Position numbers and translations under genes: made by a program. Below, piece by piece: positions 6,377-32,839 of a DNA stretch of 64,000 bases. The notes under the pieces are model-generated. The model saw nothing but the letters and a program-made list of their open reading frames with translations. It was not told where the DNA came from and did no database searches. The DNA comes from a virus. Taxonomy: Duplodnaviria > Heunggongvirae > Uroviricota > Caudoviricetes. Position 1 is the first letter of the stretch. Each line of letters opens with the position of its first letter. Where the stretch lies: positions 1 to 64,000 of the IMG/VR virus record IMGVR_UViG_3300037400_001691. The stretch is one strand, 5' to 3'.

Positions 6377-6394
6377 TTCCCACTACCGCAATAT

Positions 6395-6888: not shown

Positions 6889-6909
6889 CAAACAATTAAT
6901 TTTAATAGT

Positions 6910-7626: not shown

Positions 7627-7644
7627 CATTAAAACTATTAAAAT

Positions 7645-8685
7645 ATGAGTGAAAAGAATTGGACGTGTAAATATGCACATCATGGAAGACGTAATGGTGA
7701 AGGATTCCCACGTCATGCACTAAAGGATTTTGATGGTACTCATATTAGTATGGGTATGTTACGTTCTTATAAATCCAAATATTCTTGGGATTATCGAAAT
7801 TATCCAGCAATTACAAATAAGTATATTGTAGGTTTATTAGATAAATATGTTGGTAAATCTTATGATGATTTTAAACTTGCTTTTGATCAAAGGACTAAAA
7901 ATCTTTATAAGAAATATCCTATAGAATGGGGTAAGATTTCTGATTACTTACTTGATAAGCCACAAGAATATTATCGTCGTATTACATTTTATCTTGACAA
8001 AAACAATATAATTAGAAGATGCAAGAAATTAAAATATAGAACTTGGAAACTTCCAACTCTTAGTAAAACTCAAAAACATTTTAATGAAAGAGTTAAACTT
8101 CCAGAATGGGGACAAGTAAGAACTGATTCTCGATTTGACGTTGATCATGATTCTTTTTCTACTATGCCTGATAAGTTTAAAGAACCTTTATTACTTGGAA
8201 CATTTTATGTTATTGTAAATGATAAGATTTGTAAACTTCCTGTTTATACTTGTAATAAAGAAATATTTAAAACATATTCAACTTATCGTGATGAAAAATG
8301 GGATAGTAAAAAGAGACGTTATATTAAAACTCCATTTTGGAAATCAGATGCTTGGAATTGTAAACTTATAAATCCTGCTAAAAGAAAGAAAATAGCAGAA
8401 CAATGGATTCCTGTTGATGTTTACACATTACCAAAATTAAAACATGATTTTTGGTGTGAAGCTAAACATAAAGACAGATATAATCTGGAAGAACGTATTG
8501 AAAATCTTAATAATAAAATCAATATAACATTAAATTTTGATATTAGATTGGAATTAATTGGTGATAGAAATAAATTAATTCACCAACTTAATGAACTTCC
8601 AGAAACTGCTTGTTACAATCTTGGATATGGTCGATATTATCCATTTGTAAAAGTATCTGATTACGAAAAGTTTTGTAAAAAATAA
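7645..8685 (+). CDS. hypothetical protein (346 aa)
   Basis: Long ORF with no recognisable motif. Confidence 0.6.
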   Translation: MSEKNWTCKYAHHGRRNGEGFPRHALKDFDGTHISMGMLRSYKSKYSWDYRNYPAITNKYIVGLLDKYVGKSYDDFKLAFDQRTKNLYKKYPIEWGKISDYLLDKPQEYYRRITFYLDKNNIIRRCKKLKYRTWKLPTLSKTQKHFNERVKLPEWGQVRTDSRFDVDHDSFSTMPDKFKEPLLLGTFYVIVNDKICKLPVYTCNKEIFKTYSTYRDEKWDSKKRRYIKTPFWKSDAWNCKLINPAKRKKIAEQWIPVDVYTLPKLKHDFWCEAKHKDRYNLEERIENLNNKINITLNFDIRLELIGDRNKLIHQLNELPETACYNLGYGRYYPFVKVSDYEKFCKK

Positions 8686-8699
8686 TTTTAAGTGTTTAA

Positions 8700-8816
8700 A
8701 GAATACTAACAGCAACTTAATTAGCACTTGTAATGCCGTGTCGGAGGTTCGATTCCTCCTCTTACTTTTAATTGAGAAAGATAGTTTAGTGGCAAAACAC
8801 GTAATTATAGTATTCT
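8700..8816 (+). ncRNA. permuted tRNA-like element U5 (Y-RNA/YrlA-like), IR AGAATACTA/TAGTATTCT
   Basis: After the IR comes the ACAGCAAC bulge, then a second helix TTAATTA/TAATTA. The T-arm is GGAGG-TTCGATT-CCTCC. The 3' acceptor-like strand TCTTACT pairs 6/7 with the downstream AGAAAGA. A D-arm GTTT-AGTGGCA-AAAC follows. Confidence 0.55.
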
Positions 8817-8835
8817 GTTTTTAAAATTAATAAAA

Positions 8836-9030
8836 ATGAAAAAAGTAATTTTTTGGATTATTGTGAAAAATTGTATTATAGTTGTACTTGTTGCAATTAT
8901 TATTGGTTTAATGGTATATTATAATCATATGCGTGAGGAATATCAAAAGAAAGAAAATACATTAATAATGATGTATAATTCTAAATGTAATCACGCTCAA
9001 ATTGATTACAAACTATTAAGAAGTTATTAA
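8836..9030 (+). CDS. small membrane protein (1 TM)
   Basis: Hydrophobic segment IIVVLVAIIIGLMVYY. Confidence 0.45.
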   Translation: MKKVIFWIIVKNCIIVVLVAIIIGLMVYYNHMREEYQKKENTLIMMYNSKCNHAQIDYKLLRSY

Positions 9031-9032
9031 TA

Positions 9033-9206
9033 TGAAAAGTAATTTTGACGGATTATTAGCAATGATTATAATTGCTACAGCTTGTGTTTTAGTTACAATG
9101 AGTATTTTTTATAATAATATTGAGCAACGTATCGAAACACTTCAACAACAAAATGATTCTCTTAAACAAGAAATTGTTTTATTAAATAATTATTTATATG
9201 ATTAAA
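9033..9206 (+). CDS. small membrane/coiled-coil protein (57 aa)
   Basis: ORF MKSNFDGLLAMIIIATACVLVTMSIFYNN... with an ATG start. Confidence 0.4.
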
Positions 9207-9407
9207 TATGTTAAACCTGAAATACAATTAATAATATCAGATTCTGAAGATTTGATGATTAGTTCACAAGAACATTTACCAGATATTCAATCTGATGTTC
9301 ACGAATGTTGTCCTGCTTGTGATCCAAATGGTTATTGGCATTGCGATCATTCTAGAGCATGGGGTAACAAAGGATCACAATATGGAAAATGTGATAGATG
9401 TAATTAA
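9198..9407 (+). CDS. small Cys/His-rich protein
   Basis: Contains CCPACDPNGYWHCDH...CDRCN. Confidence 0.45.
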   Translation: MIKYVKPEIQLIISDSEDLMISSQEHLPDIQSDVHECCPACDPNGYWHCDHSRAWGNKGSQYGKCDRCN

Positions 9408-9411
9408 CATG

Positions 9412-9485
9412 GTGTCGTTAACTTAATTGGCTAAAGGCGGTGACTGTGAATCACTGAGATATCGGTTCGAATCCGTTGCGATACT
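9412..9485 (+). tRNA. tRNA-His(GUG)
   Basis: Acceptor GTGTCGT/GCGATAC with 2 G-U pairs, and a G at -1. Anticodon stem GGTGA/TCACT with loop CTGTGAA. T-loop TTCGAAT. Confidence 0.55.
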
Positions 9486-9503
9486 ACATCATATGTATTG
9501 TAA

Positions 9504-9643
9504 AGAATACTAACAGCAAAATTATTTAAAAACTGTTTTCTCCGTTGTGCGAAAGGCGCGTATAGGTTCGAATCCTATCATTAGGTAATTACTCCTAATG
9601 TGGTGGAATTGGTAGACACGATGGATTGTTTTAATAGTATTCT
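9504..9643 (+). ncRNA. permuted tRNA-like element U6 (Y-RNA/YrlA-like), IR AGAATACTA/TAGTATTCT
   Basis: Leader ACAGCAAA and a second helix TTTAAAAAC/GTTTTAA. T-arm TATAGG-TTCGAAT-CCTATC. Acceptor-like hairpin ATTAGG-TAATTACT-CCTAAT. D-arm GTG-GAATTGGTAGA-CAC. Confidence 0.55.
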
Positions 9644-9798
9644 GTTTTTGGAGGGTTGACAGAGTGATTTATTGCACCAGACTACTAATCTGGCAGTCGT
9701 CATTTTACAGGTTTACTTTGGCCATTTTTAGTAGTTATATTCCTACTTTGGCTTTGGGGTAAGTTTTGTACAAAAATTTCTAAAAAGATTTTGAAACA

Positions 9799-10017
9799 AT
9801 GATTATATTTTTTATATTTATCTATCTTTTAGGTTCAACAATTTTTGCTGGATATTTCTTCAGTAAATTTGAGCCAAATGATTTCATGGCTCAATCTTCT
9901 GCAATATTTTTAGGATTATTATGGATTTTTATAATTCCTTTAATAATAATGTGGTGTACATTATATTATCCTACAAAATATTTCGGTAATTTGTTTGATA
10001 AACTTAACAATAAATAA
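9799..10017 (+). CDS. small membrane protein (2 TM)
   Basis: Hydrophobic ORF. Confidence 0.45.
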   Translation: MIIFFIFIYLLGSTIFAGYFFSKFEPNDFMAQSSAIFLGLLWIFIIPLIIMWCTLYYPTKYFGNLFDKLNNK

Positions 10018-10023
10018 ATTTTA

Positions 10024-10108
10024 GGAGTTGCTGCTCGGATGGTGGACGGGCACCGGACTGTAAATCCGGCACATAGAAACACCGTAGGTTCGAATCCTAC
10101 CAACCCCA
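10024..10108 (+). tRNA. tRNA-Tyr(GUA), class II (bacterial type)
   Basis: Acceptor GGAGTTG/CAACCCC with one mismatch. Anticodon stem CCGGA/TCCGG with loop CTGTAAA. 14-nt variable arm. T-arm GTAGG-TTCGAAT-CCTAC. Confidence 0.6.
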
Positions 10109-10124
10109 CTAAAAATTTAACACT

Positions 10125-10691
10125 ATGAGTTATTATCATTATTTTAAATTAAAGGATGAAAGTAAATATCAGAAAGAAGATGCTTTAAGAGAACTTAAGT
10201 TTAAATATACATCTTCAGATAAAGATAAAATTCTATTAAAAGTAAGTATGATTAAAGCTTATTATGAAAATAAGATTGAAAATAATTATACTGATATTTT
10301 TTGTAGAGTTAAACTCTTAGCATCTGATATAGAAAAAAATTGTCTTCTTTCTTTAGTAAAAGAGATTAAAGAAAAAGGAGAAATAGAGAGAAATAGACCT
10401 CACGATGAATATGAAATGGAACAAATAGTAAATTCTTATGATGAAGATATAAATAGAATTATTGAAAATCTTCTTATATTATCTACTATTAGATTTGTTC
10501 CAGATAATGAATATTCAGACACTCCTAAAACGGAAATGGATTATTTGAGATATGAATATATTACTCAAATTAATTACGAATTAGAAACGTTAGAAGATAC
10601 AGTTCTCGATTACACTTTTTCTAAATTTGTATTAGAAGAATGTAATAGAGAAACAGAATCTGAAAGGAGTTCATCAGAAGACTTAGAATAA
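10125..10691 (+). CDS. hypothetical acidic protein (188 aa)
   Basis: ORF with no recognisable motif. Confidence 0.55.
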   Translation: MSYYHYFKLKDESKYQKEDALRELKFKYTSSDKDKILLKVSMIKAYYENKIENNYTDIFCRVKLLASDIEKNCLLSLVKEIKEKGEIERNRPHDEYEMEQIVNSYDEDINRIIENLLILSTIRFVPDNEYSDTPKTEMDYLRYEYITQINYELETLEDTVLDYTFSKFVLEECNRETESERSSSEDLE

Positions 10692-10705
10692 GTCTTCTGT
10701 AAATT

Positions 10706-10780
10706 AGGATCATAGTTCAGTTGGTCAAGAACATCTGGCTTACATCCAGAAGATCATCGGTTCGAATCCGATTGATCCTA
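10706..10780 (+). tRNA. tRNA-Val(UAC)
   Basis: Acceptor AGGATCA/TGATCCT 7/7. D-arm GTTC-AGTTGGTCAA-GAAC. Anticodon stem TCTGG/CCAGA with loop CTTACAT. T-arm ATCGG-TTCGAAT-CCGAT. Confidence 0.65.
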
Positions 10781-10787
10781 CAATTAT

Positions 10788-10874
10788 GCACCTATGGCGC
10801 AAATGGATGAGACGCACCACACTTAGAATGTGGAAACCGAAAGGTTTGTAAGAGTTCGACTCTCTTTAGGTGCA
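10788..10874 (+). tRNA. tRNA-Leu(UAG), class II
   Basis: Acceptor GCACCTA/TAGGTGC 7/7. Anticodon stem CCACA/TGTGG with loop CTTAGAA. Variable hairpin AAACC-GAAA-GGTTT. T-arm AAGAG-TTCGACT-CTCTT. Confidence 0.65.
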
Positions 10875-10876
10875 CT

Positions 10877-11098
10877 ATGAATATAATATATTGGAATCCT
10901 AAAGAACATAAAAGATATAAATTTTATACTTTATGTTTAAAGTTTCCATTTGGAAAGAAGTGGAAACAATATTGGTTTTGTAAAAGATGTAATTTTATAA
11001 ATAAACCTCTTTTAGACGCAATGAGAAATCTCCCATTAACAAAACCCAATTTTAAAGAAATTGAATTTGAAGATTTTACTTGGGAAATAATTAGATAA
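10877..11098 (+). CDS. hypothetical protein (73 aa)
   Basis: ORF with no recognisable motif. Confidence 0.45.
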   Translation: MNIIYWNPKEHKRYKFYTLCLKFPFGKKWKQYWFCKRCNFINKPLLDAMRNLPLTKPNFKEIEFEDFTWEIIR

Positions 11099-11100
11099 TT

Positions 11101-11514
11101 ATGAAGAAACTTATTTTATTATTGATGCTCTTATTATCTATAGGAGTATATGCACAGGTAACAACTCATGTTACACTTACATATTACCAACCTGTAGTGG
11201 AACAGTGTAATTCTGATCCATTAACAACTGCAGACGGTAGTAAAATAAATTTACATCATCTTAAACAAGGGAAAATTAAATGGTGTGCAATCAGCAGAGA
11301 TTTATTATATCTTTTCCCGAAAGATGAACCAAAACGTATTTACATTGAGGGATTTGGAGTTTATGAAGTTCGTGATGTAATGAATAAAAGATTTCATCAT
11401 CGAGTAGATATTCTCATTCATCCCAAAAATAGTGTAAGAGTTAAATTAGATAGAGTTAAAATTAAAATTTTGAGTAGTCACAGAAATGTGAATCGTAACC
11501 ACAAGAAACATTAG
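11101..11514 (+). CDS. secreted 3D-domain-like (cell-wall-binding/lytic transglycosylase-like) protein
   Basis: Signal peptide MKKLILLLMLLLSIGVYAQ. The TYYQ...QC...DPLTTADGS...IEGFGVYEVRD pattern resembles 3D-domain proteins. The ORF ends with TAG. Confidence 0.45.
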   Translation: MKKLILLLMLLLSIGVYAQVTTHVTLTYYQPVVEQCNSDPLTTADGSKINLHHLKQGKIKWCAISRDLLYLFPKDEPKRIYIEGFGVYEVRDVMNKRFHHRVDILIHPKNSVRVKLDRVKIKILSSHRNVNRNHKKH

Positions 11515-11796
11515 CACGTTTGCCCAAGACATTAATTATCTGCACAATCGTAGTTGATGGCTAACAGACTTGGAGACCATCGTATTGGTACAGAGTTATC
11601 CCACTCTCGGAGTATAAGGGAACCCAAGTTTACCACTACTTTATTAATATATGAAGCTAACATAGTATATTAAATAAAGGTGAAAGACTATAAAGGCGCA
11701 CTATTGTCACAATAGATGAAAATCTGGCGGTAAACTTATTAATTTTTATTTATAATTATATATAAAAGGTTGTACGATACCTTAAATCGTACATTT

Positions 11797-11870
11797 GGGC
11801 TTTGTGGTGTAACTGGCTAACACACCTCCCTTGCAAGGAGGAGTTTAGGGTTCAAATCCCTCATCGTCCA
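11797..11870 (+). tRNA. tRNA-Ala(UGC)-like with imperfect acceptor (G3-U70 present)
   Basis: Anticodon stem CCTCC/GGAGG is perfect, with loop CTTGCAA. T-loop TTCAAAT. The acceptor GGGCTTT/ATCGTCC has two mismatches. Confidence 0.45.
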
Positions 11871-11961
11871 CTTTTGTTTTTTTCATTTGCATATATTTTT
11901 CCCAATGACCTTTTAATAAGGTTGTTGGGGTTTTTGTTAAGTAACTAATAATTTTTACAAA

Positions 11962-12192
11962 ATGACTAAAAAAGATATATTAAGAGGAGCAGGAATACTC
12001 AGAAAGGAGCAACCTTGCTTAAGGAAAGGACAAGCAGTTTTTAATTATGTAGATATGCATCCAGAACTTTTCAAAAATGCTGCACGTATATCTCAGTTTA
12101 ATTATGGAATTGATTGTTTCTATAATGATGATATAATTGATCAATTTATTGATCAAGTTCTTGAAATATTAAACAATGATTTTATAGACTAA
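11962..12192 (+). CDS. hypothetical protein (76 aa)
   Basis: ORF with no recognisable motif. Confidence 0.45.
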   Translation: MTKKDILRGAGILRKEQPCLRKGQAVFNYVDMHPELFKNAARISQFNYGIDCFYNDDIIDQFIDQVLEILNNDFID

Positions 12193-12319
12193 TGTTATGA
12201 CCTTTGGACAAGCAATAGAAGAACTTATTCAAAACGAGAAATTTCGACATTTGTTTTCTCCTAAATTATATTATAATTATCTTATTGGTGATTGAAATAT
12301 ATTAAATAATTTTCAATAA

Positions 12320-12394
12320 AAGACGCATGATGACCAAGTGGCTATGGTGACAGGTAACGTTCCCAACGATGGTTCGAATCCATCCTTGCGTCTT
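12320..12394 (+). ncRNA. tRNA-like element: 8-bp terminal stem AAGACGCA/TGCGTCTT, D-arm-like CCA-AGTGGCTA-TGG and canonical T-arm GATGG-TTCGAAT-CCATC, but no canonical anticodon arm
   Basis: Hand fold. Confidence 0.35.
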
Positions 12395-12954
12395 AATTTG
12401 GGGGTATTTGGATTTGATTGCTAAGAGAAGCAAAGAAATCACGCAAAGGCAGTTGGAAAGACAACAAATAAAATTTAAACGGAAATAACACAGTTACATT
12501 CCGTATCGCTGCTTAATTGAATTAGATTAAGTACGATACCCGGGAAACACAGGATACTTACCGAGGAACAGAAATAGTATTCATCGCTGGCATCGGCAGT
12601 AATTAAACGAGCAAAAGTTTTATTAGTTTTCACAAAACTAATTGGTGGAGCTAACATTCAGTTAGCCTAAAGAAGAAAACTTTTAAAAATTGAAAAGCGT
12701 GTACAAATTTCGATGATATTTTAGTAAGACGAGGGTTTAATAGTTGGACCAGCTATAAAGTGATTTATAGTTAAAAACATCGGATGAATTCAGGGAACGC
12801 TAAAAAATAAAGCTCAAGATAAGCTTTATTTCATGCTAATCCTGAGCTAAACATAGAGTACACTCTATGAAAGTGCAACGACTATTGGAGAACTACAGTG
12901 TTCTTAATTACCAACTTGAGCGTCCGACATCTCATTAAGAGATGATGATATAGT

Positions 12955-13518
12955 CTAATCTTCTATGAAAGTAGAAGTATAGGAAGAAATCTGTTTTAAA
13001 AATTTTTTAGTTTCTAAATCAGACATTTGTTGTTTCATTAAATTAATAGGAGTTGATACAAATTGAACATTACCTTTTATGTAACCTTTAGATGAATCAA
13101 TTCTATCTAAAGATGCTCGATAAATTATATTTAAATCATTTATATTATTATCTTCTGGTAATGTTAATTTAAGATTAGTATAAGGACATATTCCATTTTG
13201 TTGTTCCCATATTAATTTTAAATATTCTAAATCTATATTTATTTCTTTAGATCTACGTTTTATACATCTCATTGTATATCTAAAAGGACTAAATTCATCT
13301 CTTCTATTTCCAGAATGTTGTGAAATATCATATTTATCATTTGATAATGATAAATTTTTATTAGATTTTCCAGAACAAATTCTAGAACAATAATTTTTTC
13401 TTCCTAATTTAACATTTCTATTATATTCGGAAAGTGGTTTTTGAAATTCTTTACCACAACAATCACAAATTAATGTGATTAATTTTCGATTTTTACAATA
13501 ATCTTTTAAAATTTCCAT
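12955..13518 (-). CDS. HNH homing endonuclease (Zn-finger N-terminus, SLDRIDSSKGYIKGNVQFV HNH motif)
   Basis: Minus-strand ORF of 187 aa with CxxC pairs and the HNH signature. Confidence 0.65.
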   Translation of the reverse strand: MEILKDYCKNRKLITLICDCCGKEFQKPLSEYNRNVKLGRKNYCSRICSGKSNKNLSLSNDKYDISQHSGNRRDEFSPFRYTMRCIKRRSKEINIDLEYLKLIWEQQNGICPYTNLKLTLPEDNNINDLNIIYRASLDRIDSSKGYIKGNVQFVSTPINLMKQQMSDLETKKFLKQISSYTSTFIED

Positions 13519-13737
13519 AATTTTTTATTTTATTTAATATATGTATATATAAGAAATTTATGTGGATACTTATAATTTTTATTGTTAATAAATGTTAATT
13601 TTGCGACTCCCTCTACCTCCACAAGAAAACGATAATTATCTATAATGTTTAATTTTTAATTACGGACGTAAGGAGCGTCCTTCTTAAATTACATATAATT
13701 ACCATCAAATTATCGTTTTCTTTTTAATTTAAAAATT

Positions 13738-13953
13738 ATGTTAGATATTTTATCATTTATCGCAATGGCATTATCATTGCTTGGAAACATTCTTTTAGTA
13801 AAGAAAATCATTTGGGTATTCCCAATTTGGATTATAGCGAATGTAACATGGATTGTTGTGAATTTTATGAGTACTCCTAATATTTCACAAATAATTATGT
13901 TTGTAGTTTATACCATACTTGCTATGATAAGTTGGTATCAATGGAAAAAATAA
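13738..13953 (+). CDS. small membrane protein (2 TM)
   Basis: Hydrophobic ORF. Confidence 0.45.
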   Translation: MLDILSFIAMALSLLGNILLVKKIIWVFPIWIIANVTWIVVNFMSTPNISQIIMFVVYTILAMISWYQWKK

Positions 13954-14035
13954 AAATAATGCTCCCATAGTCAATTAGATACTTATAAATCTAAAAATAA
14001 AAACGGAGATAAATCTTATTATCGTTATCACAAAT

Positions 14036-14119
14036 GGGAGGTGGGCAGGGTTGAATAATGCACCGGTCTTCTAAACCGGAGTCTTTTAGACATGATGGGT
14101 TTGAATCCCATACCTCCTA
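14036..14119 (+). tRNA. class-II (Ser-like) tRNA with anticodon loop CTTCTAA, reading UCU
   Basis: Acceptor GGGAGGT/ACCTCCT. Anticodon stem CCGGT/ACCGG is perfect and almost identical to the E. coli tRNA-Ser anticodon arm. Variable hairpin GTCT-TTT-AGAC. T-arm ATGGG-TTTGAAT-CCCAT. Confidence 0.5.
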
Positions 14120-14297
14120 CATTTTTATTGATGTAGGTTCGATTCCTACTGGGAGTACTATTTTAGGTAGTGATTTAACATTTATTAACAAATTTGTTGA
14201 TTTACATCAATTTAAATTTTTTTGAAAATAAAAATCAAATTATTATATTTGATTAGAAATTTTAGATAAACAGTTTATTAATTAAAAATTTAAAAAA

Positions 14298-14473
14298 ATG
14301 AAAAAGTTGTTATTTGCATTTGTTATGTGCATGAGTATTGTACTTGTAAGTTGCGGTTCTGGCGCAGTAACATCAGTAAGTGATAATGATTCTATCGACA
14401 CAGTATCTTATGATACTATTGATACCATTGTTCTTGATACAGTGGGTGTTGATACAACCATTTGTATTGATTA
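14298..14473 (+). CDS. small lipoprotein (58 aa)
   Basis: Signal peptide with lipobox MKKLLFAFVMCMSIVLVSCGSG. Confidence 0.45.
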
Positions 14474-14643
14474 ATTTATTAAAAGAAAGGATTTATTATG
14501 AAGAAATTGTGTAATCTAGTGAAAGCAGGAATTAAATTTTATGGAAGAAATCTCAAAAACTTTACGAAGTTAATCGTTATTCCTGAAGGAGCTTGCTATG
14601 CACAGTAATTCCTGTACAATGGTAGTTTAATACTACCAACAAT

Positions 14644-14712
14644 GTCCCATGGTGTAATGGTAGCACATCAGATTTTGGTTCTGACGGTCAAGGTTCGAAT
14701 CCTTGTGGGACA
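14644..14712 (+). tRNA. tRNA-Gln(UUG)
   Basis: Acceptor GTCCCAT/GTGGGAC. Anticodon stem TCAGA/TCTGA with loop TTTTGGT. T-arm AAGG-TTCGAAT-CCTT. Confidence 0.55.
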
Positions 14713-14862
14713 ACAATTAACTTTTAAAAAGAAAGGAGTTTAATTATGAAAAAAATCAAAGCTTTATTTATTAGTGCTATTACTATCGCTGCTTGCATGT
14801 ATTCATTTTACATCGTAGCATAGTAATGCTTTTTTAATCGAATTTTATTAACTTTAAATATA

Positions 14863-23802: not shown

Positions 23803-24702
23803 ATGAGTATAATCGGAGATGCACTAACACAAGCAATCGACGCAAAGAGTAATGATGTAAATTCATACGTTTGGAAAGGTCCAAAGAAGGATATTAACGG
23901 ACGTAAAGTACAAGACGAAATTAAGTTAATGGACATGAGTGTAGAGCAGTTACAAGCTGCTTTTGACCATTGTGCTTCTATGCTTTATAGTAATGATAAG
24001 GAAAATCCAGGAAGATATGTCCTTCTCAAAATTATTAAGGAGCAGAGAATGAAATGCAACGCAGAACTCTTTATGCGTTATCAGGAGAATACCTATCATA
24101 CATCTGATAGAGCAAAGTATCCTAGATTTCATTATCAAGAGGATTTACGTAAGTTCCTTCGTGATAATGAAGTACAGCTTAAAGAAATGTATGGAGTAGA
24201 AAACTTAAAAGAACTTCCTATGGGAATACTTAACAATATCCCATCAGAGTTTTCTAATATTCCTATTAATACAGTAATTGATGCTTGCCTTGATTCACTT
24301 GGTACTTTCAATAAAAAGCATATTACTTTAAACTTTATTACTAAGCTTCCTCTTTGGTTTACACAGCAAGAAATGAAAGATCTTACTGAGAGAACTGCTG
24401 ATGGAAAAATACGTAATAGACTTGAGGTAATTAAAGAAAGACTCGGAATCCGTAACAACATTCGTCTTATTATAGATGATGAAAATGCAAAACTTAATTA
24501 CACTGAATTTCGTGCAGCAGTTCAGTTAAAGAATAAGAATTATTCTCAACTTACAACTGATCAGCTCGTACTTCTTCAAAATAAACTTTTATTTTATCTT
24601 GAGGATGAAGTAGACGTTCATATTAAACAATGGGAATCTCGAATCAAACAGATTAATGAAGTTTGTAAACTTAAAGGATACAGACTTCAGGTAAATGGCT
24701 GA
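23803..24702 (+). CDS. hypothetical protein (299 aa)
   Basis: ORF. Confidence 0.55.
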   Translation: MSIIGDALTQAIDAKSNDVNSYVWKGPKKDINGRKVQDEIKLMDMSVEQLQAAFDHCASMLYSNDKENPGRYVLLKIIKEQRMKCNAELFMRYQENTYHTSDRAKYPRFHYQEDLRKFLRDNEVQLKEMYGVENLKELPMGILNNIPSEFSNIPINTVIDACLDSLGTFNKKHITLNFITKLPLWFTQQEMKDLTERTADGKIRNRLEVIKERLGIRNNIRLIIDDENAKLNYTEFRAAVQLKNKNYSQLTTDQLVLLQNKLLFYLEDEVDVHIKQWESRIKQINEVCKLKGYRLQVNG

Positions 24703-24805
24703 TTTATTTGGTCCCATTTCAAGGGATGAACGTCAAGCACAATGTATTGAGAATTGGGTAAAGCATAAAGGAAAAGCTACTGTTGTTGGTGCAACAGGTT
24801 TTGGT
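24695..24805 (+). CDS. SF2 (DExH) helicase, exon 1 (ends inside Walker A ...GATGFG)
   Basis: Translation is MADLFGPISRDERQAQCIENWVKHKGKATVVGATGFG. Joined to exon 2 it gives GATGFG-KT, a complete Walker A. Confidence 0.7.
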
Positions 24806-25961
24806 TTCCAAAATAAAATTTTTGTTTGAAATTTTGAAACTTGTTAAATTAGTTATATTATTAATTTAACAGTTAAAATTATGGATATAGAAAAATTGGC
24901 ATTTGAATTTCAAACAACTAGTATTTCTCTTACTAAATTAGCAGAAAGAGAACATACAGCAAGACAAACTCTTGCAAAAAAATTTAAAGAATTAGGTATT
25001 GAGATAATTAATAAACAAAATAAAACTAAATTTAATGAACATATCTTTGATTCTATAGATACAGAGAAAAAAGCATACTGGTTAGGTTTTATTTTTGCTG
25101 ATGGAAGTATTAGAGAACAAATTGAAGGTAAAAAAGTTCCTTATACTTTTGAATTAAGTTTAAAAGGAGATGATATAGAACATCTTAAAAAATTTAATTC
25201 ATTTATGGAATATCAAGGAGATAATGTTAAATTAGGAAAAAGTAAATGCAAAAATAAAGAGTTTTCTAGATGTAGATGGACTATTACAAATAAACATTTA
25301 TGGACTATTCTTAACAATTTAGGTTGCACATCTAATAAATCTTTAACATTACAATTTCCTAATGAATCAATATTTAGTTCAAAAGATTTAATTCCACACT
25401 TTATTAAAGGTTATTTTGATGGTGATGGATGTTTTACACGTCATGTATATACACATATTGTTAGTCCTGTTATTTCTATATTAGGAACTCCAGAATTTTT
25501 AGATAAAATTGACGAATATTCTAATATAGAATCTATAAGACGACATGACAAAAGACATTCTGAAAAAACTTATATTTTAGAATTTAATAAAGAAAATGGA
25601 ATTAAATTTATTAATTATATTTATTCTAATTGTAATATATATTTAGATAGGAAATATAAATTATATAATTTTTTTAAAAACGGAAGCCGTTCTGTAGAGG
25701 AATTTACAGAATTACAATCGGGCAATATCGGGGAAAAGCTGAAGCTTGAGTCGAGAGACTATATGTATGAAAATCCCGAGATAAACTTAGAAACTAAAGA
25801 ATCTGAGTCATCGTACAGCGTAGGAGGTGAAACTGTATAACAGACTATAATCCTTCCAAGAGTGTCCGATACCCCAACTGAAATAAGTGGGTAAAAAGGT
25901 ACGCGGGGCTTACTTGTAATAAGTAAGAAATACGAATAAAAAATCGTATGATAACAATCCG
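24806..25961 (+). mobile_element. group I intron in helicase gene, carrying LAGLIDADG endonuclease ORF
   Basis: The exon ends in U and the intron ends in G. The in-frame read-through hits a stop. The host Walker A motif is split precisely. The 3' core shares blocks with the dut intron. Confidence 0.65.
24881..25840 (+). CDS. LAGLIDADG homing endonuclease (intron-encoded)
   Basis: Two LAGLIDADG motifs: YWLGFIFADGSI and KGYFDGDGCF. Confidence 0.75.
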   Translation: MDIEKLAFEFQTTSISLTKLAEREHTARQTLAKKFKELGIEIINKQNKTKFNEHIFDSIDTEKKAYWLGFIFADGSIREQIEGKKVPYTFELSLKGDDIEHLKKFNSFMEYQGDNVKLGKSKCKNKEFSRCRWTITNKHLWTILNNLGCTSNKSLTLQFPNESIFSSKDLIPHFIKGYFDGDGCFTRHVYTHIVSPVISILGTPEFLDKIDEYSNIESIRRHDKRHSEKTYILEFNKENGIKFINYIYSNCNIYLDRKYKLYNFFKNGSRSVEEFTELQSGNIGEKLKLESRDYMYENPEINLETKESESSYSVGGETV

Positions 25962-27131
25962 AAAACTCGAGTTGGAACAAACTTGATAGGTAAAATACTA
26001 AAGCGTAAACCCCAATATAGAATTTTAGTAGTTGTTCCTACCACTACTCTTAAAGAACAATGGGAAGAAATCCTTGATTCATTAGGATACGGATTCAACT
26101 GTTCTGTAGAAGTAATTAACACTATTGTATTAAAAGATACAAAATATATTTGTGATTTTTTAATTTTGGATGAAATTCATAGATTTGCGTCTGATTTATT
26201 TCAACAAGTGTTCAATAGAGTTAATTATTCTCTGATTTTAGGACTTACTGCAACTATTGAAAGACTTGACGGAAAAGAAATTATCATTAAACAATATTGT
26301 CCTGTATGTGATGAAATCACATTAGAGGAATGTATGATTAATGGTTGGATTTCCGATTATAAGGAATATCAAGTACTAATAGAAGTAGATAACATACAAG
26401 AATATAAAGATTTAAATAGACAATTTAATGAACATTTTGGATTCTTTAACTATGATTTTGGATTAGTTATGAATATGGTTGGTCCAAAAGGATATTTGGC
26501 TCGTATTGCATATCGAGATCAATTATGTCCAAATGGTACAAAAGAAGAAAAATCCGCAGTTCTTAAATCTATTATCTATCATTCGACTGCTTTCATGAGA
26601 GCATTACAAGGTAGAAAATCTTTTATTAATAATCATCCTAAGAAAATTGAAATTGCTAGAAAAATAATTGATGCACGTCCAGATGCTAAAATTATTACTT
26701 TTTCTAATAATATAAAGATGGCTGAGGCTATTGGAATTGGAAAAGTATATAGTGGTAAAGACACTAAAAAGAAAGGTCGTGCAACATTAGAAGAATTACA
26801 ATCTGGTGACATTCGTGTTATAAACACAATTGCTAAAGCAAATGAAGGTCTTAATATTCCAGATTTATCTATAGCAGTAATGCTTGGAATTGATTCTTCT
26901 AAAATAAAAGCAGTTCAAAGAGTAGGTAGAGTATGTAGAGCGCAAGAAAATAAACAGGCTGAAATCTTTAATCTTGTTATTAATGATACAGCGGAACTAG
27001 AATGGTTCAAAAGAGCTCACGCTAAATCTCAATATACAACAATTGACGAACAAGGTTTAGAAGCGGTTCTTAATTATGAAGAACCTAAACCGTATAAAAA
27101 GAAAATACCAAAATTAACTTTTAGATTTTAA
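25962..27131 (+). CDS. SF2 (DExH) helicase, exon 2
   Basis: Begins KTRVGTNLIGKILKRKPQYRILVVVPTTTLKEQW and contains the LDEIHR DExH box. Confidence 0.7.
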   Translation, partial: KTRVGTNLIGKILKRKPQYRILVVVPTTTLKEQWEEILDSLGYGFNCSVEVINTIVLKDTKYICDFLILDEIHRFASDLFQQVFNRVNYSLILGLTATIERLDGKEIIIKQYCPVCDEITLEECMINGWISDYKEYQVLIEVDNIQEYKDLNRQFNEHFGFFNYDFGLVMNMVGPKGYLARIAYRDQLCPNGTKEEKSAVLKSIIYHSTAFMRALQGRKSFINNHPKKIEIARKIIDARPDAKIITFSNNIKMAEAIGIGKVYSGKDTKKKGRATLEELQSGDIRVINTIAKANEGLNIPDLSIAVMLGIDSSKIKAVQRVGRVCRAQENKQAEIFNLVINDTAELEWFKRAHAKSQYTTIDEQGLEAVLNYEEPKPYKKKIPKLTFRF

Positions 27132-27347: not shown

Positions 27348-27995
27348 TTGTTTGAAACTAGTTTTAACTATATAGTGCAAAAACTTAATTTTAATATAGA
27401 CGATGAATTAGTTCTCATTGAAAAATATGAGATAACTCCAACTGAAATGTTTGTAGCAAGATTAATTCTCTTAGCGCAAGAGAGTGACGAAGAACAACAA
27501 TATCTTGCTAAATTTTTGAGTATCCCAGAAAATGTAAGGGGAGATTTTAGAGACATTTTATTATCACTACAAAATAAAGGGATTATATTAAAAAGTTATA
27601 ACATTCCAAAGAAAGGAGAAACACTTGATATTTACGAAATAGAGTTTAATAAGAATTTCTTAAAGAACTTTTATCGAGCATCTGGTGAAATGGGTGAAGA
27701 ATTATTTGAACATTATCCACAATTTGCAAATATAAATGGTAACATGGTTGGAATAAGAAATGTTTCAAAGAAGTTTGTAGACCTTGAAGATGCTTGGCGA
27801 AAATATGGTAAAATTATTAAGTGGAATCCTGATATTCATAACGAAATTATCAGTTTACTTGATTGGGCAGTAGAAAATGGTATTGACATAAATAAATCGT
27901 TAGCGAATTTTATTTGTGATCATAGTTGGTTAGATTTAAAGACTCTTCGTGATGGAGGGGCTGGATTTAACACGAATACTGTTAAAATGTTATGA
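27348..27995 (+). CDS. hypothetical protein (215 aa)
   Basis: ORF. Confidence 0.55.
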   Translation: MFETSFNYIVQKLNFNIDDELVLIEKYEITPTEMFVARLILLAQESDEEQQYLAKFLSIPENVRGDFRDILLSLQNKGIILKSYNIPKKGETLDIYEIEFNKNFLKNFYRASGEMGEELFEHYPQFANINGNMVGIRNVSKKFVDLEDAWRKYGKIIKWNPDIHNEIISLLDWAVENGIDINKSLANFICDHSWLDLKTLRDGGAGFNTNTVKML

Positions 27996-29071
27996 TTAGT
28001 AATTCCTTACTAACACAAATTACAAACGGTCGTGATGGTTCGAATTGGGGATATACTATGGGATTACCAAAACTTGAAAATATTGTAGATGGTGTATGTA
28101 AACAAACATATACACTATTATTTGCAGGTTCAGGTTGTGGTAAATCAAATCTCATGATGTATGCTTATATTTATAGACCATTAATGGAACATTTAGACGA
28201 TGATGATTTCTTTGTTTATTTATTCTCATTAGAGATGAAAGCAGAAATCATTCTTGCTAAACTTCTTTGTATTTACATATTTGAAAAATATCATATTGAA
28301 CTTTCTTTTAAAGAATTACTTTCTAAAAAGAGAAATTATAGACTTCCAGACGAATATTACAAAATAGTTTTGGAATGTGCTGATTGGCTAAAGAAAGTAG
28401 AATCCAAAATTAGGATTTATGATAAAGGAGCAAATGCTGATACAATTTATGCTAAATTAAAAGAAGATTTAGAGCAAAAAGGAAAAGTTGAAGAACAAGG
28501 TAATCGTAAAGTATATTACCCAAATAATCCAAATTTAACATATTTGGTTGTTGTTGATCATATGGGATTACTTCGTACTAAAGACGGAAGAAGTAAGAAA
28601 CAAGAAATTGATTTATTATCAAATTATTTTGTTTATTTACGTAATAGTTATGGCATTAGTCCATTAGCTATAATGCAATCTAATAGAGATCAATCTTCAT
28701 CTGCAAGAAGACAATTAGGTATGTATTTACCTCAAATGTCTGATGTTAAAGAAACTAATGTTCCGTATGAGGATTCCGATATCACCATTGCGATTTATAA
28801 TCCTAATGTTGATAAATTAAAAACTCATAATAAATACGACATAGTACAATTTGGCGATGCGTTTAGAAGCATTGTATGTATTAAGAATAGATACGGTGAA
28901 TCTAATGTAGAAGATAGTTGTGCGTTCTATGGTAAATCTAATATCTGGGTGGAATTACCTAAACCAGATGAGATTTATGATGTAGAAAGATATAAAACTC
29001 CAGATTGGCTTTGGAAAAAGCAAGAGATGCCAGATAAAGAAAAGAAAGAACAATTTAAATTTACAATGTAA
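27992..29071 (+). CDS. DnaB-family replicative DNA helicase
   Basis: Walker A GSGCGKS, Walker B LVVVDHMGL and the H4 motif QSNRDQSSSARRQLGMYLPQMSDVKETNVPYEDSDITIAIYNP, which matches the DnaB SDLRESGSIEQDAD block. Confidence 0.7.
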   Translation: MISNSLLTQITNGRDGSNWGYTMGLPKLENIVDGVCKQTYTLLFAGSGCGKSNLMMYAYIYRPLMEHLDDDDFFVYLFSLEMKAEIILAKLLCIYIFEKYHIELSFKELLSKKRNYRLPDEYYKIVLECADWLKKVESKIRIYDKGANADTIYAKLKEDLEQKGKVEEQGNRKVYYPNNPNLTYLVVVDHMGLLRTKDGRSKKQEIDLLSNYFVYLRNSYGISPLAIMQSNRDQSSSARRQLGMYLPQMSDVKETNVPYEDSDITIAIYNPNVDKLKTHNKYDIVQFGDAFRSIVCIKNRYGESNVEDSCAFYGKSNIWVELPKPDEIYDVERYKTPDWLWKKQEMPDKEKKEQFKFTM

Positions 29072-29106
29072 TGGCAGAATTAATCGCAGTCGTAGGAGAA
29101 AGTGGT
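29071..29106 (+). CDS. Sak4-like (AAA_24) P-loop ATPase, exon 1 (12 codons, MAELIAVVGESG)
   Basis: Overlaps the helicase stop (TAATG). Joined to exon 2 it gives the Walker A GESGSGKTT. Confidence 0.6.
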
Positions 29107-30496
29107 CTTTTAAGAAATTTTAACATTTAATTTTACCATTATTAAAATAAAATTCGTATATTTGTATTATTAATTATTAACTATTAACTATTAAAATAAT
29201 ACAAACATGAAACGAGTTTATAAAATTTTAACTAAATTACACAAAACTGCTGGAATTTATATTATTTCCTGCACAAAAACAGATAAAGTATATATTGGAG
29301 AAAGTTTAAATGTTAGTGGGAGAATTTTAAAACATTTTACTAATCTTAGAAAGAATATGCATCATAATCCTATACTTCAAGCTATATTTAATAAGTATGG
29401 AGAAGAAACAATGATAGTAGATGTTTTAGAATGGATTAATTCTGATGATATACATCAACTAGATTTTCTTTTAAGAAAGAAAGAAGTTGAATATCAAAAA
29501 AAGTTTGAACATTGTATCAATTTTGATAAAAATGGATACGCATGGAAATTAAATGCAACAGAAGAACAAAAAGAAGCAAATCGTAAACAATTAGACTCTA
29601 TTAGAGAAGCAGCGATGAATGCTTGCAAAACTCCTTTAGTTATATATAATATTAAAACTAAAGAAAAAATAGAAGTAGATAGTTTACAAGAAGCGGAAAA
29701 TTATATTGAGCAAAAACATATTTATCGAAATATAAAAGATAAAGTGTATTTACCATATAATAATTATGTAGCATTTCTTCCAGAAGAGTATAATCCTACA
29801 CTAATTTTAAACACATCTTGTATGTCTAATGCTAGTATATCTGAAGTATATAAGTTATATAATTTAAAAACTGGGGAAGCTTTAAGTTTTCCAAGTAAAT
29901 CTCAATTTGCCATATATTTAACAGGTAAAAGGAATGATAAATTATATGATAGATATACTACATTTATAGATGATAATTTTTTAACTGCAATGCAAATTAC
30001 TTCTATAGAAGATTTTTGGAATGCTCCTTTTGTATATAATAGAAATTCTAGAAGTATAAAAACTTGTATTCTAAAAGATTATTATCAGGCATTACTGAAT
30101 TACAAGACTGATATTGAATTATCTAATATTTTAGGTTGTGAAAGAAGATTAATTCCAGTTTTATTTAAAAATAAATCCTTAGCAGACAGGATTAATGAAA
30201 TTACAGAAACCGCAGGCCACTTTAACAAATCTGTTTAAAATTGGGAAGCTTTAATTCTAATTATTGTGAAATAATTATAAGGTAATCAATTACGAACTAT
30301 ATGAATAGCATAAAAGTAATATAGACGTTTAACGACTAGTAGATAAATAGCTAAATTGATTCTACCACGAAATACAGACATTTTATAAATTGTATGTGAA
30401 TATAAGATATAAAGTGAAGAGATAGTCTAAACTGCATATTAAAGAATATAAATTGCAGAGTTTAGGATAAAGAGCCTAGAGTTAATTACAAAAATG
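29107..30496 (+). mobile_element. group I intron in ATPase gene, carrying GIY-YIG endonuclease ORF
   Basis: Exon 1 ends in U (GGT) and the intron ends in G, the G of the ATG at 30494-6. The P-loop is split exactly. Confidence 0.6.
29207..30238 (+). CDS. GIY-YIG homing endonuclease (intron-encoded)
   Basis: Contains GIYIISCTKTDKVYIGESLNVSGRILKHF...NKYGEE. Confidence 0.75.
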   Translation: MKRVYKILTKLHKTAGIYIISCTKTDKVYIGESLNVSGRILKHFTNLRKNMHHNPILQAIFNKYGEETMIVDVLEWINSDDIHQLDFLLRKKEVEYQKKFEHCINFDKNGYAWKLNATEEQKEANRKQLDSIREAAMNACKTPLVIYNIKTKEKIEVDSLQEAENYIEQKHIYRNIKDKVYLPYNNYVAFLPEEYNPTLILNTSCMSNASISEVYKLYNLKTGEALSFPSKSQFAIYLTGKRNDKLYDRYTTFIDDNFLTAMQITSIEDFWNAPFVYNRNSRSIKTCILKDYYQALLNYKTDIELSNILGCERRLIPVLFKNKSLADRINEITETAGHFNKSV

Positions 30497-30943
30497 AGCG
30501 GTAAAACTACAAGTATAAGAAACCTTAATCCAGAAGAGACCTTCATAATCTCAACCACTGGAAAACGTCCTGGTACAAAGGGCGCAAAGAAGAAATATCC
30601 AACTTTTGGAGTTGATCCAGAAACAAAGGAACTTCACGGAAATTTCTTCACAGCATCTAACGTTGATAATATCGGTAAGATGCTAAAAGTAATTAATACT
30701 AAACTTCCTAATATCAAAACAGTCATTATTGACGATTATCAGTATGTAATGGGTTTTGAAGCAATGGATCGTGCAGGAGACAAAGGCTTTGACAAATTTA
30801 CTCAAATGGCTCAACATGCTTATCAGGTAATCAAAGATGCCATGAATCTCCGCGATGATTTATATGTTGTTATTCTTACTCATAGTGAAAATACTGGTGA
30901 CAAAATGAATCCATATTATAAGATTAAGACTCAAGGTAAATAA
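30497..30943 (+). CDS. Sak4-like P-loop ATPase, exon 2
   Basis: Begins SGKTTSIRNL. Walker B VIIDDYQY. Confidence 0.6.
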   Translation, partial: SGKTTSIRNLNPEETFIISTTGKRPGTKGAKKKYPTFGVDPETKELHGNFFTASNVDNIGKMLKVINTKLPNIKTVIIDDYQYVMGFEAMDRAGDKGFDKFTQMAQHAYQVIKDAMNLRDDLYVVILTHSENTGDKMNPYYKIKTQGK

Positions 30944-31327
30944 TATTTTGCCAGTATAACCCCTAATTCGGCGAAATCTGAAGCACAAGTCGTGAGATTA
31001 ACTGTATGACAATGCCGAGCCAAGCAAAAATAGAATTCTAGACTATTTTGGGCGCGTGTATCGACTAGTAGCGGATCGGCTACGTAAAAATTGAAGTAAT
31101 TAATCAATTTTGAAATGGGGATGTAAATTTTATATATTTTAATTTGAGGTAAATTTAAACAAAAATTAACTAGAAAACTTTTAATCATAAAATAAATGAT
31201 GTAAAAGGGTTTAAATTTATTAAATATAAAGAATTTGTGAATACATAGTCAGTTCCCGTAGAAATACGGTAGGCATAAATTTGATAGTAATTATATCAAA
31301 TAAAAAATTTATGTAATTTTAACGAAA

Positions 31328-31546
31328 ATGATTGATAATGTCATCACTCTTGAGGGTCTGTTTACTTATGTGTTCTTCACAGAAGTAAATCGTGATGACG
31401 ATGGTAATCCAAAGTATCAGTTTAAAACTAATTCTGATGGAACTTGTACTGCTAAGTCTCCAATGGGACTTTTCGATACACTTCTTATAGATAATGATCT
31501 TAATATGGTAATTTCTAAAATAAAGGAATATAATGGCGAAGACTAA
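31328..31546 (+). CDS. hypothetical protein (72 aa)
   Basis: ORF. Confidence 0.45.
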   Translation: MIDNVITLEGLFTYVFFTEVNRDDDGNPKYQFKTNSDGTCTAKSPMGLFDTLLIDNDLNMVISKIKEYNGED

Positions 31547-32138
31547 TCTTGTTAAAATGGAAGTTTATTTCGATCTCGATACTCAGAGCTTTATAGCTCT
31601 GGATCCTGAGACCGGAGAATTTAGAGACTTTTCAGTTTCTAAAAAGAGTGCAACACCTAAGAAAAAGGCTGTTACCTCTGATGATGCAACTCCTAAATTA
31701 ATTCTAGAAACAAGTAAATATACTTTAACTCAAGCAGCAGCCAATTTACTCGGTGTTGAGCCTGATGATCGTATTGATATTAAATATCAAAAGATAGGTA
31801 ATATACTTGTTCCTGTAATTGGGTCTAATACTGCTTTTGGTACTAAGGCAGGAAATAAACTTACTAAAAGTTTAACTGTTAGTTGTAGAGGTAAAGCTAA
31901 TGAAGAACTTAGTGAATATGGTTCTGAGTTTACACTTAAGCCTCATCCTAACAAAGAAGGTTTATTTATCCTTGAAGGAGATAAACCGTTACCAGAACCA
32001 AAAGAAAGTAAAGTTGTAAAAATAGATGATAAATCCGAACACGAGAAGGATATTGATGACGATCTTGCTGACCTTCTCGATTCCGATAGTAAAACAGATG
32101 ATTATTTAGAAATCAATAATGATATTTTTGAAATTTAA
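31533..32138 (+). CDS. hypothetical protein with acidic C-terminal tail (201 aa)
   Basis: C-terminus is DDDLADLLDSDSKTDDYLEINNDIFEI. Confidence 0.5.
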   Translation: MAKTNLVKMEVYFDLDTQSFIALDPETGEFRDFSVSKKSATPKKKAVTSDDATPKLILETSKYTLTQAAANLLGVEPDDRIDIKYQKIGNILVPVIGSNTAFGTKAGNKLTKSLTVSCRGKANEELSEYGSEFTLKPHPNKEGLFILEGDKPLPEPKESKVVKIDDKSEHEKDIDDDLADLLDSDSKTDDYLEINNDIFEI

Positions 32139-32140
32139 TT

Positions 32141-32839
32141 ATGAATAGTTTTAATTTCGGTGGATTTGCAGAGCAAAAAGTAAAGAATACTAATTATCTT
32201 AGAGCGTATAACATTTATGAGAATGTAAAGTTTACAGGTATTGATGAACCAAAGACAGGTACATCAAAGAATGGTAGAGCTTGGAAGTCTTGGGCTTTCC
32301 ATTTCGAGTGTCCTGATGGTGAGTTTGTAAAGTCTATCTTCGTTCCAGAAGATAACAAACGTCCTGTATTTAAGAATGCACAGGGTCACGATTATGAGAG
32401 ACCTTCTAACCATGAGAACAATCTTGCTTTCCTTTTCCTCGTTGGTCAGTATTTTGATCCAGAAGGACTTGAGAAGCTAAAGAAGAACATGGATAAGGTT
32501 GATGGTTATGACACTCTTATCGCTCTCTTCAAGAAAGTAATCGCTACAAATAAGAATACTACAAGTATGAAGCTTGTTGGTAGAAATGTAGAAGGTTCTG
32601 TTTATGCTGAGATGCCACAGTATTGTGGACTTAGTAAGGAACTCGATGAAGAGGGTAAAGCTAAGTGGTTCCCTGTAAGTAACAGTGTATTCGGAGATAA
32701 GGTAGGATTTACTGCTTATGAGCTTTCTAAGAAGAAGGAGCTCGAGTCTGCAAAGCCAACTGATATGTCTAAGAAGGAGAGTGCTCCTTCAGAATCATCT
32801 GAATCTAACGAAGTAGCGTTTGATGATCTTCTTGATTAA
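32141..32839 (+). CDS. possible ssDNA-binding protein (gp32-like acidic tail ...FDDLLD)
   Basis: The acidic C-terminal tail resembles the T4 gp32 C-terminus, and GC is above the local level, suggesting high expression. Confidence 0.35.
   Translation: MNSFNFGGFAEQKVKNTNYLRAYNIYENVKFTGIDEPKTGTSKNGRAWKSWAFHFECPDGEFVKSIFVPEDNKRPVFKNAQGHDYERPSNHENNLAFLFLVGQYFDPEGLEKLKKNMDKVDGYDTLIALFKKVIATNKNTTSMKLVGRNVEGSVYAEMPQYCGLSKELDEEGKAKWFPVSNSVFGDKVGFTAYELSKKKELESAKPTDMSKKESAPSESSESNEVAFDDLLD

Follow-up and report, generated by a model that had tools for sequence, protein, structure and literature searches.

Two Group I Introns Divide a Predicted Sak4-Like ATPase Gene in a crAss-Like Phage

Introduction

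Can a phage replication gene that is cut in two within its Walker A motif still encode a complete protein? This question is raised by a locus in the virus record IMGVR_UViG_3300037400_001691, of which positions 1 to 64,000 were analyzed (64,000 nucleotides (nt) of crAss-like phage DNA with 29% G+C, referred to as the window). Its replication block holds genes for a SNF2-like helicase, a DnaB-like helicase, an AAA ATPase and a primase. The apparent open reading frame (ORF) of the ATPase, at 30494-30943, reads M-SGKTTS at its start. We conclude from comparison with related loci that the ATPase gene is made up of three exons and two group I introns, and both introns very probably splice as such.

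Exons of the ATPase Gene

The gene and its borders were found to be arranged as follows.

27992-29071, + strand: DnaB-like replicative helicase gene (Pfam DnaB_C 55.1 bits; phrog_19)
29071-29106, + strand: exon 1 of the predicted Sak4-like/AAA_24 ATPase gene, 12 codons, MAELIAVVGESG
29107-30496, + strand: predicted group I intron 1, 1390 nt; absent precisely from L003, with core covariation and with orthologues in L136, L138 and L334
30497-30937, + strand: exon 2 (SGKTTS...KIKTQG), with the remainder of Walker A and with Walker B (VIIDD)
30938-31324, + strand: predicted group I intron 2, ORF-less, 387 nt; absent from L003, with orthologues at the same site
31325-31546, + strand: exon 3 (KMIDNVITLEGLFTYVFF...EYNGED, then stop); the joined product aligns in one piece

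Exon 1 overlaps the preceding gene, as the TAA of the DnaB-like ORF (29069-29071) and the exon 1 ATG (29071-29073) share a nucleotide (TAATG). The same overlap was found in the intron-less relatives L001 and L003 (relatives are given by locus number). Exon 1 matches the start of the protein in homologues without interruption (MAAETIAIVGESG in L001), and the frame closes after its twelve codons, the final nucleotide being U29106. Exon 2 opens with AGC GGT AAA ACT ACA (SGKTT), and joining the exons yields GESGSGKTT. Only after joining are Walker A (GESGSGKT) and Walker B (VIIDD) found together.

Joining also restored the match to a protein family. Exon 2 alone has no Pfam match, exons 1 and 2 together match AAA_24 with 31.3 bits (cutoff 27), and all three exons match it with 40.1 bits. 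The joined protein of 232 amino acids (aa) covers positions 5-193 of the 195 in the AAA_24 profile (PF13479) and positions 1-212 of the 219 in phrog_2872, 'Sak4-like ssDNA annealing protein' (E-value 1.8e-60). These full-length profile matches support the assignment of the ATPase to the Sak4-like/AAA_24 family, with annealing and ATPase activity as predicted functions. A tblastn search with exon 1, exon 2 and the ORF 31328-31546 gave single-piece alignments over 98-99% of the length in 168 phage records.

Uninterrupted genes were the rule among 82 IMG/VR loci with ATPase homologues. One locus (L060) was cut by a contig end, and of the others only L069 was split, at the site of intron 2. The loci L136, L138 and L334, which are split at the site of intron 1, were found later than this set, by DNA pattern and nhmmer.

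Alleles With and Without the Introns

The metagenomic contig L003 (IMGVR_UViG_3300031961_000281; 2618 nt) was found to be about 98% identical to the window and to be without both insertions. It aligns in three collinear blocks.

L003 1-1054, window 28053-29106: 97.8% identical
L003 1055-1498, window 30497-30940: 99.3% identical
L003 1496-2618, window 31325-32447: 98.0% identical

The L003 sequence is ...GAAAGTGGT^AGCGGTAAA... over site 1 and ...CAAGGT^AAAATGATT... over site 2, where ^ marks the position of the insertion. Between the ATPase gene of L003 and the joined exons there are 4 differences in 699 nt, all of them synonymous. Because the collinear blocks break there, intron 1 was placed at 29107-30496, between the second and third Gly/Ser codons of Walker A (GESG^SGKT). 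At the DNA level the boundary of intron 2 is ambiguous within an AAA repeat; it was set at 30938-31324 on account of the group I rule that the upstream exon ends in U and the intron in G. L003 could be genomic DNA with an empty homing site or cDNA of a spliced RNA, and the junctions are supported either way.

Both insertions are also present in the independent contig L335 (JGI 3300037249), which shares 99.8% identity with window 29038-31731; they are therefore not an assembly artefact. Orthologous introns were found at site 1 in the ATPase genes of L136, L138 and L334 and at site 2 (...CAA GGU^AAA AUG...) in L069, L090/L093 and L091/L092. The natural alleles at this locus span all stages of the life cycle of an intron with a homing endonuclease: the site is empty in L003; the endonuclease is intact in intron 1 of the window, in intron 2 of L069 and probably also in L090; and it is decayed in intron 1 of L136 and L138 and in intron 2 of the window.

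A sequence-only reading of the locus had proposed an ATPase gene split within Walker A by a group I intron, with a GIY-YIG ORF in the intron, a U at the 5' splice site, an omega G at the G of the apparent ATG, and a 12-codon exon 1 overlapping the DnaB-like stop. This agrees with the L003 allele, whose junction is identical, with U29106 and G30496, and with the covarying core and endonuclease matches described below. The 'Sak4-like' label, the restored Walker A and intact frame, and the AAA_24 comparison that it suggested for the joined protein are likewise borne out by the profile matches above. That reading had also predicted that automated annotation would call a truncated ATPase, and the products called from L335 are of 343, 149 and 72 aa, the last two without a Pfam match. 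The two-exon structure had to be abandoned, since a second, ORF-less intron had been overlooked: the TAA at 30941-30943, taken as the gene end at 30943, lies inside intron 2, and the gene runs to 31546.

Two observations were made on the related loci. L334 (CALEJY010000119.1) is a 10.9-kb contig with the label of a Candidatus Melainabacteria metagenome-assembled genome; it has the L138-type phage ATPase gene, intron 1 included, looks identical to L138 across the stretch compared, and is probably phage DNA that was mis-binned, or a prophage. In L138 (about 5080-5100), and also in L136, the ATPase frame ends straight after Walker B (VIIVDD followed by TAA), which suggests a third intron site in the ATPase gene that is not used by the window.

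The RNA Core of Intron 1

As the group I model RF00028 gave no match, relatives of intron 1 had to be gathered by other means. They were recovered by core motifs and nhmmer, with L136, L138, L263, L265 and L334 among them. The 14-mer scans of viral and metagenome contigs listed mainly chance matches, out of which at least L136, L138, L263 and L265 emerged on filtering with nhmmer. The family was found not only in ATPase genes, but also in a SNF2-like (SF2) helicase gene of related phages, in L083, L086 (identical in sequence to L087 and L263), L088, L265 and L333. The elements of the core are given below for the window.

30230-30496, + strand: predicted ribozyme core of intron 1 (RNAalifold), with G30496 as omega G
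P3: 30230-34 with 30374-78, UCUGU/ACAGA; five variants, all Watson-Crick
P4: 30239-44 with 30286-91, P5 being the hairpin between the P4 strands
P6: 30297-302 with 30319-24
P7: 30334-38 with 30423-27
P7.1: 30339-43 with 30361-65
P8: hairpin at about 30379-30415
P9: 30432-36 with 30454-58
P9.1: about 30461-30480

The order of elements is P3, J3/4, P4, P5, P4', P6, J6/7, P7, P7.1, P3', P8, P7', P9, P9.1. From seven sequences RNAalifold recovered P3 (long-range), P4, P5, P6, P7.1 and P9.1, and no P2. AAUUGG/UCAAUU was considered as P2 and rejected, as the long-range P3 of RNAalifold (30230-34/30374-78) makes this pair P4. The P4-P6 region is very short, and one bipartite hairpin is located between P7 and P3'.

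Single-sequence minimum free energy folds of the cores were uninformative (z-scores -1.8 and -2.5). Within the family, P3, P5, P6, P7.1 and P9.1 were found to covary. With the P7 pseudoknot included, 97.1% of 310 cells in the fold were paired, compared to 31-39% in slid controls, where the pairing partners were displaced by 1-3 columns. Fifteen pairs had changed on both sides, compared to 1-3 in the slid controls. On four of five measures none of 500 shuffles reached the observed value; the exception was the number of additional pair types, which was reached by 393 shuffles. Each lineage has different hairpins at P8 and P9, which still pair in per-sequence folds, and a hand-curated set of 50 pairs including P1, P8 and P9 was 99.4% paired with 24 pairs covarying.

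A Guide Sequence in the Endonuclease ORF

A distance of 1.1 kb separates the 5' splice site of intron 1 from its internal guide sequence, which was found downstream, within the closing part of the endonuclease ORF. It follows that P1 encloses this whole ORF in its loop (L1).

29157-29164, + strand: TATATTTG, fits the Bacteroidetes -7 element TAnnTTTG; 43 nt 5' of the endonuclease ATG
29207-30238, + strand: GIY-YIG homing endonuclease ORF, 343 aa, intact (matches in Pfam, phrog_7168 and 1mk0)
30209-30223, + strand: predicted internal guide sequence, ACCGC at 30209-30213 (P10) and then GCCACUUU at 30216-30223 (P1)

In P1 the last 8 nt of exon 1, AAAGUGGU (29099-29106), pair with GCCACUUU over 8 bp, with U29106·G30216 at the splice site. 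In P10 the ACCGC at 30209-30213 pairs with GCGGU of exon 2. In seven family members the guide and the 5' exon change together. The U·G is kept in all of them, and position -2 is occupied by four different Watson-Crick pairs. The helicase-borne members have the following pairs.

L087: 5' exon CUGGUU, guide GACCAG
L333: 5' exon CUGGCU, guide GGCCAG
L088: 5' exon ACUGGAU, guide GUCCAGU
L083: 5' exon UACAGGAU, guide GUCCUGUA
L265: 5' exon ACUCGGU, guide GCCGAGU

For L088 and L083 the exon 7-mers were predicted from the guide and then located upstream at the position where the helicase frame is completed (T-G-F^G-K-T). For L087 the predicted exon CCTGGTT was absent; the actual exon end is CTGGTT, which gives 6 bp with the U·G. 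P10 was found in the window, in L138, in L086 (3' exon CGGGAA with guide UUCCUG), in L088 (UCGG with CCGA) and in L333 (UCGGC with GCCGA), and was not evident in L083 and L265. A local P1 between ACCAUU at about 29135 and AGUGGU was discarded. It gives U-A instead of U·G in the window and has no counterpart in the helicase-borne members, whereas the distal guide covaries in all seven.

The 343-aa ORF matches GIY-YIG (PF01541) with 30.9 bits (cutoff 22.6) and phrog_7168 'homing endonuclease' with an E-value of 6.9e-12, and the catalytic domain of I-TevI (1mk0) aligns with residues 15-77 (E-value 1e-5). GIY is found at residues 16-18 and YIG at residues 29-31. The score for NUMOD1 (20.7 bits) was under the cutoff. 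Within the last approximately 30 nt of the ORF lie the guide strands of P10 and P1 as well as the 5' strand of P3. In L136 and L138 the endonuclease ORF is mostly deleted or frameshifted, with the guide segment intact. The TAnnTTTG element is similarly placed in L136, L087, L083 and L088, against a strand background of 0.95 per kb; as a weak lead, this points to the endonuclease probably having a promoter of its own. No relative was found when the GIY-YIG protein was used as query against viral contigs.

Intron 2

Intron 2 folds into a conventional core. The elements were located as follows.

P1: GGUAAA with UUUGCC, including U30937·G30950
P3: 30960-63 with 31117-20
P4: 30968-73 with 31013-18
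P7: 31063-67 with 31246-50
P7.1: 31069-82
P7.2: 31088-110
P9: 31256-69
Omega G: G31324

The consensus includes P1, P3, P4, P5, P6, P7, P7.1, P7.2, P9 and P9.1 with the P3/P7 pseudoknot. Over its 53 pairs, 100% of 212 cells were paired, compared to 32-41% in slid controls, and 10 pairs in P5, P7.1, P7.2, P9 and P9.1 had changed on both sides. P1, P3, P4, P6 and P7 were found to be invariant among the four intron 2 sequences. P7.1 and P7.2 are both present and covarying, and with these hairpins intron 2 may be IA-like.

The orthologues differ with respect to P8. In L069 P8 holds a 288-aa ORF with an N-terminus that is GIY-YIG-like by eye, L090/L093 have an insert of about 0.93 kb, and L091/L092 have a minimal P8 of 27 nt. 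The 121-nt P8 insert of the window terminates in VKGFKFIKYKEFVNT before a stop, while the L069 endonuclease terminates in VKGFVFKKYKDFMNT before its stop. Because the two endings resemble each other, the P8 piece at 31200-31247 is taken to be a relic of the C-terminus of a deleted endonuclease.

Splicing and Alternative Explanations

From these elements we infer catalytic self-splicing, as well as the activity and specificity of the endonuclease and its promoter. The distal guide would capture the end of exon 1 by pairing with its last 8 nt in P1, after which an exogenous G would attack after U29106. P10 (ACCGC) would align exon 2, and ligation after G30496 would give ...GAA AGU GGU AGC GGU AAA ACU... 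Both transesterifications would be performed by the compact core (P3-P9, no P2) with its omega G. Intron 2 would splice likewise, having lost an endonuclease gene from its P8 loop. Ribosomes at the 3' end of the ORF would open the P1, P10 and P3 helices, which makes splicing and translation of the endonuclease likely to be mutually exclusive on a given RNA. The GIY-YIG enzyme would most likely cut close to the insertion site in alleles that lack the intron, L003 being an example, leading to homing in co-infection.

Several points weigh against splicing of both introns as group I introns. The case at this locus is built on the comparison of DNA sequences. A cmscan of the whole window against Rfam at gathering score matched neither ATPase intron, and RF00028 matched neither in the 2.7-kb slice 28900-31600 at E <= 10, so that the Infernal/Rfam check proposed in the sequence-only reading came out negative for both. 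RF00028 does match elsewhere in the window (12728-12977, + strand, 96 bits). The families are small, with 7 (intron 1) and 4 (intron 2) distinct sequences, and in that of intron 1 both P4 and P7 are invariant and hence uninformative. P1 of intron 2 involves 3 exon nucleotides only, and a distal guide inside a translated ORF could make folding inefficient. L003 could be either genomic DNA or cDNA, and a literature search on its IMG sample identifiers returned nothing. A match to RF00028 is an aid for recognizing group I introns and not their definition.

The missing Rfam matches and the comparative nature of the case would also fit insertions that are non-splicing mobile DNA, that is, a free-standing endonuclease cassette and a relic that leave the ATPase as a pseudogene in this strain, and many free-standing endonuclease genes are present in Crassvirales-type phages (PMC12880540, PMC7886860). 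We find this improbable. The exons are intact, with nothing but synonymous changes relative to the allele without introns, both insertions contain group I cores with compensatory changes, and the guides track the exons, with the guide segment preserved despite decay of the ORF. The ATPase is also among four highly conserved replication genes (PMC7886860).

It is less probable still that separate polypeptides of 12, 149 and 72 aa assemble unspliced, or that the fragments are joined by translational bypassing. Exons 2 and 3 do start at or near an ATG (30494 and 31328) and gene callers output both, but the omega G and a Met codon that belongs to the exon account for these ATGs. The first fragment would be of 12 aa, half of the Walker A loop would be lost by the split, and no homologue was found to be so split without an intron-like insert. 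The gaps of 1390 and 387 nt greatly exceed the 50-nt ribosomal hop in T4 gene 60, and we know of no ribosomal hop near 387 or 1390 nt. The least credible explanation is that the contig is a chimera of assembly, or that an intein or a group II intron is present in place of a group I intron. The DNA is from a metagenomic source and P-loops are common intein targets; however, L335 is 99.8% identical over both insertions, and orthologous insertions are present in L136, L138, L334, L069 and L090-93. Being out of frame and rich in stops, the inserts are not inteins, and against a group II intron there is no reverse transcriptase ORF and no group II match in the Rfam scans. Together with the L003 allele and the folds of both introns, L335 in effect refutes this explanation. 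Splicing of two group I introns thus remains the reading that we prefer.

Related Introns in the Walker A Codons of Helicase Genes

The members of the intron 1 family in the SNF2-like helicase gene are inserted in Walker A codons (T-G-F^G-K-T), as is intron 1 in the ATPase gene (SG^SGKT). A GIY-YIG ORF is located in the P1 loop of L087 and L333, while the loop of L083 is too short for one. The endonucleases of the window and L087 were found to be 35% identical over the catalytic domain (E-value 2e-15), and no similarity was detected when their C-terminal parts were compared. We are mildly inclined to think that one family, invisible to Rfam and with its guide in the ORF, colonised the Walker A codons of both the AAA_24 ATPase and the SNF2-like helicase genes, the guide being retargeted and the C-terminal (DNA-binding) part of the endonuclease replaced, with its catalytic domain and the ribozyme core conserved. 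If so, DNA coding for P-loops (NUGGN...CGGNAARAC) would be a generic landing pad for the hopping of introns from gene to gene.

The SNF2/ResIII-type helicase gene of the window itself (24695-27131) is likewise split within Walker A, 5 nt downstream of the helicase-borne site of the intron 1 family, and its parts are as follows.

24695-24805: helicase exon 1 (...GATGFG)
24806-25961: insert of 1156 nt
From 25962: helicase exon 2 (KTRVGTNLIGK...)

The insert, which follows a U and terminates in a G, holds a LAGLIDADG endonuclease ORF at 24881-25840. When the exons were joined, the ResIII score rose from 37.9 to 69.6 bits, with the match running across the junction. The Rfam scan gave no match to this putative LAGLIDADG helicase intron.

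Relation to Known Phage Introns

Introns in the ATPase gene of crAss-like phages are already known, elements of this kind being common in those of the gut, and the picture of phage group I introns is unchanged by this locus. A conserved replication block has been described in crAss-like phages (Yutin et al., 2021; PMC7886860), with group I introns in the AAA ATPase (ATP_43b) and in other replication genes. The window shares with these phages the block of SNF2-like helicase, DnaB-like helicase, ATPase and DnaG-like primase, the host gene family, a tRNA array, and a high density of introns with GIY-YIG and LAGLIDADG endonucleases. The survey in PMC7886860 relied on endonuclease domains to recognize introns, and its description leaves out splice sites, RNA structure and introns without an ORF; here junctions, guides and cores are resolved. 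In the crAss literature the orthologue is annotated merely as 'AAA domain ATPase'. With the Sak4/AAA_24 annealing ATPases (PF13479, phrog_2872) the joined protein shares the full-length profile, Walker A and B, and a place in a replication/recombination block, the function being predicted.

'Jug' jumbo gut phages of Bacteroides/Phocaeicola have an average of 18.5 group I introns per genome (PMC12880540). These introns, of about 206 nt on average, were found with covariance models of intron subtypes; of 76 predictions, 37 had their splicing confirmed by reads from metatranscriptomes (PMC12880540). Both the Jug phages and the phage of the window belong to the gut phages of Bacteroidota, and in both there are many group I introns and essential genes are split by them. 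They differ in the host genes described, which are terL, nrdD and DNA polymerase and not a Sak4-like ATPase.

The T4 td intron with I-TevI (group IA2) is similar to the introns described here in several respects. It is located in a conserved motif of a phage gene of nucleotide or DNA metabolism, it encodes a homologous GIY-YIG domain, P7.1 (and P7.2), here possibly of the IA type, is present, and likely homing into intron-less alleles driven by double-strand breaks is a further common trait. In td the ORF is in a peripheral loop of the P6 region. Intron 1 differs from td in that P1 encloses its ORF and the guide is part of the last codons of that ORF, in lacking P2, and in its very short P4-P6, and it has no detectable nucleotide similarity to phage records and no RF00028 match. 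What is less usual at this locus is that both introns are missed by RF00028, that the guide lies within an ORF 1.1 kb away, and that one intron lineage is found in the Walker A codons of two unrelated P-loop genes.

The exon structure matters for annotation. Gene callers yield orphans of 149 and 72 aa without a domain match and lose the 12-codon exon, while the three-exon structure restores a core replication/recombination gene of a crAss-like lineage. The two small alignments could seed covariance models for finding similar introns elsewhere.

Other Observations on the Window and Its Relatives

DNA searches of the phage collection with the region, both near and distant, gave no match. The best protein identity of the ATPase to phage records was 51%, with the closest relatives being outside the cultured/GenBank phage set, and the DnaB-like protein matches crAss-like phages with 25-29% identity. 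An array of 18 tRNA genes is located at 2558-14714, with no suppressor anticodon among them. The RF00028 intron at 12728-12977 lies inside this tRNA-rich region without an obvious interrupted ORF flanking it, and a 187-aa ORF is present on the opposite strand at 12955-13518.

Additional replication genes appeared to be interrupted in other genomes. On the reverse strand of L087, at about 3767-5870, a gene that is family A DNA polymerase-like by eye appears to contain a further insert with a GIY-YIG-like ORF. In a 121.6-kb gut phage (MT835492.1, 26081-27448) the DnaB-like homologue was found in two pieces with a surplus of ~370 nt, which suggests that this gene also has an intron.

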